DNA from: Escherichia coli | GTDB lineage: Bacteria > Pseudomonadota > Gammaproteobacteria > Enterobacterales > Enterobacteriaceae | NCBI RefSeq assembly: GCF_030013595.1 | Contig: NZ_CP122768.1 | Direction: 5' to 3' (one strand) | Length of the DNA: 64,000 bases | Shown here: in pieces, positions 33,228-34,380 of the stretch | Layout: the number at the start of each line of letters is the position of its first letter | Numbering within the stretch: the stretch's first letter is position 1 | The notes under the pieces: model-generated | Told to the model about the DNA's origin: nothing | The model's database searches: none | Seen by the model: only the letters and a program-made list of their open reading frames with translations | Made by a program: the position numbers and the translations under genes

Positions 33228-33500
33228 ATGTCCAGAAAAACAGAATTTAAAGGCACCGCAGCTTCTCGCCGTAGAGCTCGTCGTGCAAACCTGCAAAGTC
33301 AGGAGGCGATCAGCTCTGACAAGCTACACAGGCCAACCCCTTCACGAGTGGTCTTACAATGCAAACGCAAACCAGTAATGAGAGCAGAAGTAATAACACT
33401 GACAACGTTGACCAGAAAATATGAAGGCTCAACTTGTCTTCCAAATGTAGCCATTTACGCGGCAGGCTACAGGAAATCCAAACAGCTGACAGCAAGATGA
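33228..33500 (+). CDS. N: N-type antiterminator (arginine-rich motif), non-λ allele
   Basis: 90 aa from MSRKTEFKGTAASRRRARRANL (ARM), GGGAGG RBS, downstream of nutL. Confidence 0.75.
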   Translation: MSRKTEFKGTAASRRRARRANLQSQEAISSDKLHRPTPSRVVLQCKRKPVMRAEVITLTTLTRKYEGSTCLPNVAIYAAGYRKSKQLTAR

Positions 33501-33558
33501 CTTGTGTTGGTCGCCAGAAAATGAAATTAGGCAGCAAACCACTTATTTGAGGTGAGAT

Positions 33559-33645
33559 ATGGAAGAAGAATTTGAAGAGTTCGAAGAGCATCCTCAGGAT
33601 GTGATGGAACAATACCAGGACTATCCGTATGACTACGACTATTGA
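33559..33645 (+). CDS. small highly acidic peptide (28 aa, MEEEFEEFEEHPQDVMEQYQDYPYDYDY)
   Basis: Short ORF with RBS-like GAGG upstream; overlaps ral start; coding status uncertain. Confidence 0.3.
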   Translation: MEEEFEEFEEHPQDVMEQYQDYPYDYDY

Positions 33646-33829
33646 TACAAATCAATGGTGTGGACAATTCAAACGATGCAATGGATGCAAGCTGCAATCG
33701 GAATGCATGGTTAAGCCTGAAGAAATGTTTCCTGTAATGGAAGATGGGAAATATGTCGATAAATGGGCAATACGAACGACGGCAATGATTGCCAGAGAAC
33801 TTGGTAAACAGAACAACAAAGCTGCCTGA
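33629..33829 (+). CDS. ral: Ral restriction alleviation protein
   Basis: 66 aa, λ Ral-like sequence. Confidence 0.85.
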   Translation: MTTTIDTNQWCGQFKRCNGCKLQSECMVKPEEMFPVMEDGKYVDKWAIRTTAMIARELGKQNNKAA

Positions 33830-33965
33830 TAGTGGCCTTTATTTTTGGCATAAATAACAGAATAAACACTGCACTGTGTATTCATTCCAACGAGTGAATA
33901 CACGGAGCAATGTCGCTCGTAACTAAACAGGAGCCGACTTGTTCTGATTATTGGAAATCTTCTTT

Positions 33966-33991
33966 GCCCTCCAGTGTGAGGGCGATTTTTT
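33966..33991 (+). terminator. rho-independent terminator (tL-type) upstream of ea10
   Basis: gccctc-cagtgt-gagggc hairpin followed by T-run. Confidence 0.55.
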
Positions 33992-34011: not shown

Positions 34012-34380
34012 ATGTCAAACATCAAAAAATACATCATTGATTACGACTGGAAAGCATCAATAGAAATTGAAATCGACCATGACTTAATGACAGAGGAAAA
34101 ACTTCACAAGATTAATAATTTCTGGTCAGACTCTGAATACCGACTCAATAAACACGGCTCTGTATTAAATGCTGTATTAATCATGCTGGCGCAACATGCT
34201 CTGCTTATAGCAATTTCAAGCGACTTAAATGCATATGGTGTTGTGTGTGAGTTCGACTGGAATGATGGAAATGGTCAGGAAGGATGGCCTACAATGGATG
34301 GTAGCGAAGGAATAAGAATTACCGATATCGATACATCAGGAATATTTGATTCAGATGATATGACTATCAAAGCCGCCTGA
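34012..34380 (+). CDS. ea10: Ea10-like early protein
   Basis: 122 aa ORF in λ ea10 position between ral and cIII. Confidence 0.65.
   Translation: MSNIKKYIIDYDWKASIEIEIDHDLMTEEKLHKINNFWSDSEYRLNKHGSVLNAVLIMLAQHALLIAISSDLNAYGVVCEFDWNDGNGQEGWPTMDGSEGIRITDIDTSGIFDSDDMTIKAA

Follow-up and report, generated by a model that had tools for sequence, protein, structure and literature searches.

What does the short reading frame between the antitermination gene N and the restriction alleviation gene ral encode, and does its product help a phage to escape host restriction? The window analysed here is a 64,000-nucleotide stretch of Escherichia coli DNA (contig NZ_CP122768.1). An earlier note on this DNA singled out a 28-codon open reading frame (ORF) and proposed that its acidic product, encoded next to ral, might act as a DNA mimic that inhibits restriction.

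An acidic peptide gene between N and ral

The ORF lies on the plus strand at 33559..33645 (stop included), exactly as it had been placed and translated, and runs from an ATG start to a TGA stop. Its 28-aa product, MEEEFEEFEEHPQDVMEQYQDYPYDYDY, is acidic and rich in Tyr and Phe: 12 of the 28 residues are Asp or Glu (43%), none is Lys or Arg and seven are Phe or Tyr, giving a net charge of about -12. The earlier description of the peptide as extremely acidic holds, with 'about half Asp/Glu' being slightly generous. Among the window's 801 six-frame ORFs with a minimum length of 25 aa, it ranks first in acidity (the runner-up has 21%), and it has the high carboxylate density and strongly negative net charge that are traits of DNA mimics. 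The GAGG noticed upstream is part of a strong Shine-Dalgarno sequence, GAGGTGA (33549..33555, plus strand), located 3 nt 5' of the ATG. The reported overlap with the start of ral is also found: the last 17 nt of the ORF are shared with ral (33629..33829, plus strand; ATG at 33629), which is read in the +1 frame and encodes a 66-aa protein identified by PHROG 1055 (E 1.9e-49) and Pfam PF11058. The ral Shine-Dalgarno sequence, AGGA (33617..33620, plus strand), falls within the Gln-Asp codons of the ORF, 8 nt 5' of the ral ATG.

Both the DNA and the protein are 100% identical to lambda orf28 (lambdap47, NP_040623.1; NC_001416 complement 34271..34357), with the same position between N and ral and the same 17-nt stop/start overlap. 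The peptide matches PHROG 16060, a family annotated as having unknown function, over positions 1-28 of 28 (E 7.1e-19). The ORF is the lambda gene orf28, already known as a 'hypothetical protein' since the original lambda sequence and not recognized as such in the earlier note; what is new here is the comparative evidence that the gene is under purifying selection, occurs as a module and is coupled to Ral as well as to Lar. In GenBank J02459 the orf28 CDS (34271..34357) is wrongly labelled 'ral(restriction alleviation;66)', PGAP leaves the gene unannotated between N and ral (as in E. coli NZ_CP082120, locus L287), and the curated phage 21 record omits it too. Although lambda is the best-studied temperate phage, for four decades its orf28 has gone no further than 'hypothetical protein', and current annotation pipelines pass it over.

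A literature search for orf28 translation, function or phenotype found no report, and a full-text search for the peptide sequence returned no match. In a CRISPRi essentiality map of lambda, constructed in a host lacking type I restriction, orf28 scored as non-essential, its knockdown having no effect on plaques (PMC10695390). Phages carrying an orf28-ral deletion have been used with orf28 passed over without comment (PMC2327257); past clones and deletions such as these may have removed or included both genes together. The peptide has no match in Pfam, NCBIfam or the PDB, and it does not match the Ral profile PF11058: the two parts occur together only in the frameshift fusions P0002 and P0004. 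In these 89-aa proteins, orf28 residues 1-20 are joined to full-length Ral by a 1-nt deletion (MEQYQ/TIRMTTT..). P0002 is the representative of 76 member sequences, so that it may reflect a variant in circulation and not an error of sequencing. Programmed frameshifting as a route to an orf28-Ral fusion was considered and rejected: the overlap has no evident slippery site and the 89-aa fusions in the databases carry the 1-nt deletion.

The upstream N gene is of the Stx/933W type (33228..33500, plus strand; Pfam N_peptide, 112 bits) and is separated from orf28 by 58 nt. About 50 nt in this region (33499..33550, plus strand) are colinear with the 3' end of phage 21 N and constitute a remnant of a phage-21-type N (..TCVGRQKMKLGSKPLI followed by a stop codon), in a frame different from that of the resident N, that carries the orf28 ribosome-binding region. 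The TGA of the remnant (33548-33550) overlaps the orf28 Shine-Dalgarno sequence, and in phage 21 and several other phages it is the true N stop codon that occupies this position. Judged by this colinearity, the remnant is a recombination scar, at which the N module would have been swapped and the orf28 ribosome-binding junction kept. The window and lambda are alike in having orf28, identical in sequence, after N and overlapping ral by 17 nt; they differ in the type of N and in the sieB module, which is absent between N and orf28 in the window. Lambda, too, has sequence similar to the 3' end of an N gene directly 5' of orf28, a pattern that insertion of the sieB module into an N-orf28 junction would leave. 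The Rho-dependent terminator tL1 presumably lies between N and orf28 in lambda, and the window lacks the sieB segment where it would be located.

Conservation of the reading frame

Ral homologues were gathered by protein search, and their loci from Providencia, Proteus, Pantoea and Erwinia were fetched blind to orf28. All of these loci contain a small acidic ORF that ends inside ral, with the DNA diverged and the peptide conserved: MEDDIEEFDEHPDDDMSQYQDYPYEYDY in Providencia, (M/V)EDDIEEFDEHPDDDMSQYQDYPYEHDY in Proteus, MDEEEFDEHPADDMSQYQDYPYEFDY in Pantoea and MEEFDQHPDDDMSQYQDYRYEY in Erwinia. Degenerate DNA patterns run on viral and metagenome contigs recovered about 40 peptide variants in 142-162 unique contexts. 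The variants change in length by whole codons only, and no frameshifting indels were observed in the related loci examined.

The earlier note looked to the synonymous-site pattern of the frame as a check on the ORF, and this pattern is present. In nine lineages found through Ral alone, pN/pS in the orf28 frame is 0.14 (pS 0.88, saturated; pN 0.125), while the two other frames, both of which contain stops, have values of 5.3 and 1.2; in a 15-lineage set the value for orf28 is 0.13. Variable sites at the three codon positions number 5/5/15 in the Ral-anchored loci and 7/9/21 in 57 unique core DNA variants. In the latter set, the EEFEEHPx stretch, which lies outside the ral overlap, has 1/1/8 variable sites, and the five EEFEE codons, which were absent from all of the search patterns, vary at third positions only.

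Ten columns of the peptide are invariant (E7, F8, H11, P12, D14, M16, Q18, Y19, Q20 and Y22), forming the core E-F-x-x-H-P-x-D-x-M-x-Q-Y-Q-[DE]-Y, which is located 3-6 residues from the stop codon. Acidic positions interchange freely among D, E, Q, N and G, and the conserved residues are mostly aromatic or hydrophobic together with the His-Pro pair. The C-terminus is variable (..DYDY, ..EY, ..YEN, ..YDN, ..YD or ..YDS). Mimicry of the SSB C-terminal tail was rejected as a role because of this variability.

All homologous loci have a Shine-Dalgarno sequence before the orf28 start despite their unrelated upstream sequences; in mosaic phages, shared homology begins approximately 15 nt 5' of the orf28 ATG. 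The consensus RNA structure over the orf28 loci has an energy of -1.09 kcal/mol and no supporting covariation. A single-sequence fold is only slightly more stable than shuffled sequences (z = -2.0) and contains a candidate pairing between the start regions of the two genes, orf28 and ral. Neither conservation nor covariation supports this pairing, and an RNA-level explanation was rejected.

On these substitution data, orf28 is a real protein-coding gene under purifying selection. It is hardly credible that the ORF has no function as a peptide and owes its conservation to the ribosome-binding site of ral and to recombination of modules at this junction. Such a reading would suit a segment that is nearly invariant among E. 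coli phages, that lies exactly at a mosaic boundary and that PGAP and several curated phage records leave unannotated; it is contradicted by the substitution pattern, with saturated synonymous sites and few nonsynonymous changes in one frame only. Conservation also persists without ral, and the Shine-Dalgarno sequence is kept in unrelated upstream contexts. Because the CAGGAY TAY CC stretch is retained in loci without ral, the ral Shine-Dalgarno sequence alone does not explain the conservation of this stretch.

Arrangements with ral, with lar genes and alone

Loci of the orf28 family carry the taxonomic labels Escherichia, Salmonella, Enterobacter, Citrobacter, Cronobacter, Providencia, Proteus, Pantoea and Erwinia. 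Protein homologues were searched for using a tandem of two peptide variants as the query. A profile search of 1.84 billion representative proteins returned 30 matches at E <= 0.001, all of which are family members except for two repetitive giant proteins; no host protein or known domain resembling the orf28 motif was found in this set. Gene callers often extend the ORF 5' into variable sequence, and the conserved part always starts at an internal Met. A scan of species-representative genomes gave four matches, including two on Segatella copri-binned contigs (L095/L096) and one in Chryseobacterium sp. (L098, on a 799-kb contig); these Bacteroidota-labelled loci are probably mis-binned or contaminating enterobacterial phage DNA.

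Four arrangements are observed. In the first, found in 133 of 162 unique contexts, the order is N, orf28 and ral with the 17-nt overlap. This overlap is present in 86 of the 88 Ral-anchored loci (the other two being a Q>L variant and the shorter Erwinia form), and orf28 itself in 15 of 17 distinct Ral lineages examined. Two lineages, in Citrobacter and Kluyvera prophages, have ral without orf28, and on this basis the idea that Ral always requires the peptide was rejected. In Kluyvera (L284/L285) exactly the orf28 ORF is gone, and the GTG start of ral immediately follows an orf28-type Shine-Dalgarno sequence (TGAGGTGAGAT); in Citrobacter (L282/L283) an unrelated 66-aa ORF is ATGA-coupled upstream of ral. 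Conversely, lambda-like phages in which ral is deleted or disrupted keep orf28 intact (L157, L169, L180, L209 and L211), and peptide types and Ral types recombine independently of each other. Since orf28 occurs without ral, ral occurs without orf28 and the two recombine independently, orf28 is a separable module: by its distribution, it is not tied to ral as a leader or to Ral as a partner.

In the second arrangement ral is absent, and orf28 lies between a Lar-family gene and an intrinsic terminator. The upstream protein scores 35.2 bits against Pfam PF14354 (Lar_restr_allev; cut-off 28.6), and the peptide start (GTG or ATG) is 5 nt before the Lar TGA, with the Shine-Dalgarno sequence GGAGGTGA. 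This arrangement occurs in ten unique viral contexts plus metagenome copies. The peptide gene is present in 9/9 close relatives of this Lar, fetched through Lar itself, and absent beside distant Lar homologues (29-38% identity). In the K-12 Rac prophage, no orf28-like ORF was found in the 56-nt gap after recT, and none lies beside ralR; ralA is unrelated to orf28; RalR is Lar-type by eye and has no similarity to lambda Ral.

In the third arrangement the orf28 motif forms the C-terminal tail of Cys-rich proteins of 56-69 aa, encoded after Lar or before Ral. One long form (L113) is ATGA-coupled to a second Lar clade (45.8 bits against the PF14354 cut-off of 28.6), a second (P0134, in L275/L276) has the 17-nt overlap with ral, and P0143 (L277) is a third with an orf28-motif tail. 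The N-terminal half of the long forms is Cys/His-rich and conserved (..C.KCR.Y..PSER..H.C..). In L277, a gene for an AcrIF11-like ADP-ribosyltransferase is located 2.3 kb downstream.

In the fourth arrangement orf28 stands alone after N and is followed by a terminator (L143, L161, L098, L239 and L248). A terminator hairpin, GGCTGCCTAACCCGCAGCC, with a T-run (TGA-GGCTGCCTAACCCGCAGCC-T6) is conserved 1-2 nt after the peptide stop in Lar-linked and some stand-alone loci (L140, L171, L238-L249 and L098); at this spacing a terminating ribosome would cover the 5' arm of the hairpin. In L143 and L161 the terminator begins about 25 nt after the stop. In the window, the first terminator-like sites 3' of N, orf28 and ral are a weaker site at 33821-33836 and an intrinsic-terminator-like hairpin with a T-run at 33964..33985 (plus strand, 3' of ral); both are also present in lambda.

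These endings raise the possibility that orf28 is a cis-acting regulatory nascent peptide, in which a destabilizing acidic N-terminus and the C-terminal motif would set the number of ribosomes reaching the ral start; in ral-less phages, its translation would decide whether the hairpin just after the stop forms. The small size of the gene is consistent with such a role, as are its ending inside the start of the next gene or 1-2 nt before a terminator stem in many ral-less loci, the location of the ral Shine-Dalgarno sequence and ATG inside orf28, and the C-terminal placement of the motif even in the 56-69-aa forms. Intrinsic ribosome destabilization, counteracted by bulky residues, has been reported for sequences that are D/E-rich at the N-terminus (bioRxiv 10.1101/2021.02.02.429294), and the acidic, Pro-containing N-terminus of orf28 resembles these sequences. 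The leader and arrest peptides MgtL, TnaC and SecM are likewise encoded by short ORFs that end at a terminator or inside the next gene, and orf28 shares this anatomy through its ral overlap and, in Lar-linked and some stand-alone loci, the adjacent terminator stem. It differs from them in three respects: the distance from core to stop is not fixed, varying between 3 and 6 residues; the loci show no conserved, mutually exclusive RNA structures (the consensus being the -1.09 kcal/mol fold above); and the motif is also found on longer conserved proteins, whose Cys-rich domain suggests a folded protein with a functional tail. The more distant terminators of L143 and L161, and the intact ORF in lambda-like phages that lack ral, also count against a role in cis. 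We consider this reading unlikely; if it were correct, orf28 would provide phages with a new case in which an early terminator is controlled through coupling to translation.

Candidate roles of the peptide

The comparative data partly vindicate the anti-restriction idea of the earlier note and not its DNA-mimic mechanism. The suggested anti-restriction neighbourhood is real, with ral adjoining orf28 in the window, and the link is stronger than the note had it, because in other phages the same peptide gene is coupled to Lar-family genes that are unrelated to Ral. Lambda Ral (PF11058) and Rac Lar (PF14354) thus represent the genomic partners of orf28-family genes, which overlap the ral start or the lar stop, and the orf28 peptide is homologous to neither.

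Known DNA mimics are folded proteins whose charges are spread over a surface of DNA dimensions; Ocr of phage T7 is a folded mimic of a stretch of B-DNA and blocks both restriction and modification. Plasmid ArdA is also a folded B-DNA mimic, blocking restriction and modification alike (PMC2731889). These proteins are very acidic, are expressed early and are directed against type I restriction-modification (R-M) systems, and orf28 resembles them in composition and context only: they are folded and several times larger, whereas orf28 is 28 aa in length, predicted to be disordered and without homology to them. Action of orf28 as an Ocr- or ArdA-like mimic, occupying the DNA-binding site of type I (or other) restriction enzymes, would fit its 43% Asp/Glu content with zero basic residues, its position in the early leftward operon 5' of the first terminator-like sites and its anti-restriction neighbours. 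It is nevertheless very unlikely. The peptide has no sequence relation to any known mimic (the profile search returned only its own family), and a predicted disordered product of 22-28 aa would be unlikely to display a DNA-length carboxylate array. Its conserved residues are the aromatic, hydrophobic and His-Pro positions, not the interchangeable acidic ones. Finally, blocking of DNA binding by M.EcoKI would oppose the enhancement of modification by Ral (PMC3874165): Ocr and ArdA block modification, whereas orf28 is partnered with proteins that need an active methyltransferase.

Our leading interpretation, which we hold tentatively, is that the orf28 product is made early, is disordered and acts in trans, with a conserved host protein as its target and support of anti-restriction as its probable purpose. 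In the leftward early operon the gene is the first cistron downstream of N. An N stop codon adjoins or overlaps its ribosome-binding site, and its last 17 nt overlap the ral start, from which we infer that translation of N, orf28 and ral is probably coupled in series, presumably on the earliest pL transcript. Very early synthesis of the peptide would fit the position of all three genes 5' of the first intrinsic-terminator-like sites. The product, an acidic, aromatic-rich peptide of approximately 25 aa, would remain disordered until bound; with its invariant aromatic/His-Pro core as a short motif, it would bind a host protein that is conserved throughout the Enterobacterales. AlphaFold2 gave a low-confidence model of the peptide part (pLDDT 44-51) with a 4-residue helix only, and on this weak indication the peptide is probably disordered. 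The modelled chain was orf28-(GGGGS)4-Ral with 29 paired rows; its mean pLDDT was 52.6 and there was no confident docking, Ral itself being poorly folded.

In the proposed role, the peptide would work side by side with Ral or Lar to let the phage escape type I restriction; it might, for instance, target the restriction subunit or the control of that subunit, with Ral or Lar driving the methyltransferase to de novo methylation. The target is tentatively placed in the restriction pathway by the physical coupling of orf28 to two unrelated proteins that share only restriction alleviation as a known activity. The only known common activity of Ral and Lar is alleviation of type IA restriction, and Ral acts by speeding methylation by the same enzyme, EcoKI (PMC3874165, PMC12707154). 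On these comparative grounds, orf28 would be a credible helper in escape from host restriction. Against this, orf28 may be associated with Ral and Lar simply because accessory genes share a slot downstream of N, and the occurrence of Ral without the peptide (in Citrobacter and Kluyvera) and of distant Lar proteins without it indicates that neither protein needs orf28.

The same observations bear on a further alternative, in which the trans-acting peptide has a host target unrelated to restriction and its position beside ral or lar is synteny only. It would then belong with the small early-left takeover factors such as Kil and CIII, and might, for example, use its acidic and aromatic residues as a decoy for a host enzyme. 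Some loci have the peptide but neither Ral nor Lar, and each of these two proteins is also found without it; its extreme cross-genus conservation points to a core component of the host as target more than to the hsd genes, which are variable, and the region downstream of N is a general slot for accessory genes. However, start/stop overlaps with two unrelated restriction-alleviation families, including two Lar clades, exceed loose synteny. We regard an unrelated target as possible but doubtful, and retain a contribution to anti-restriction as the preferred reading.

A peptide of this size that modulates a type I R-M enzyme has a precedent in T4 Stp, a phage peptide of approximately 26 aa reported to act on the type IC enzyme EcoprrI. 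Stp is like orf28 in size but is unrelated in sequence, is not acidic and comes from a different phage group. A more specific proposal, that the orf28 peptide is the second component of Ral/Lar escape from type I restriction, in the form of a disordered acidic factor of approximately 25 aa, is one that we consider improbable, more so than a role in cis. If it were true, the peptide could alleviate restriction via HsdR or its control by ClpXP, with Ral or Lar supplying the enhancement of modification, and the classical lambda ral phenotype would be the work of two cistrons. If the peptide does contribute, the known anti-restriction factors would gain a class of very small, disordered members. 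Selection on orf28 and its coupling to two unrelated restriction-alleviation proteins make it a concrete and cheap experimental target.

One further ORF near N is noted here. A 285-aa ORF at 31931..32788 has an NYN (predicted nuclease) domain (Pfam PF01936, 36.8 bits) and sits between a CI-like repressor gene (31102..31803) and N, where lambda has rexAB. In a Proteus prophage (L091) an NYN gene is likewise located directly 5' of N. This ORF may be a prophage-encoded exclusion or defence gene.
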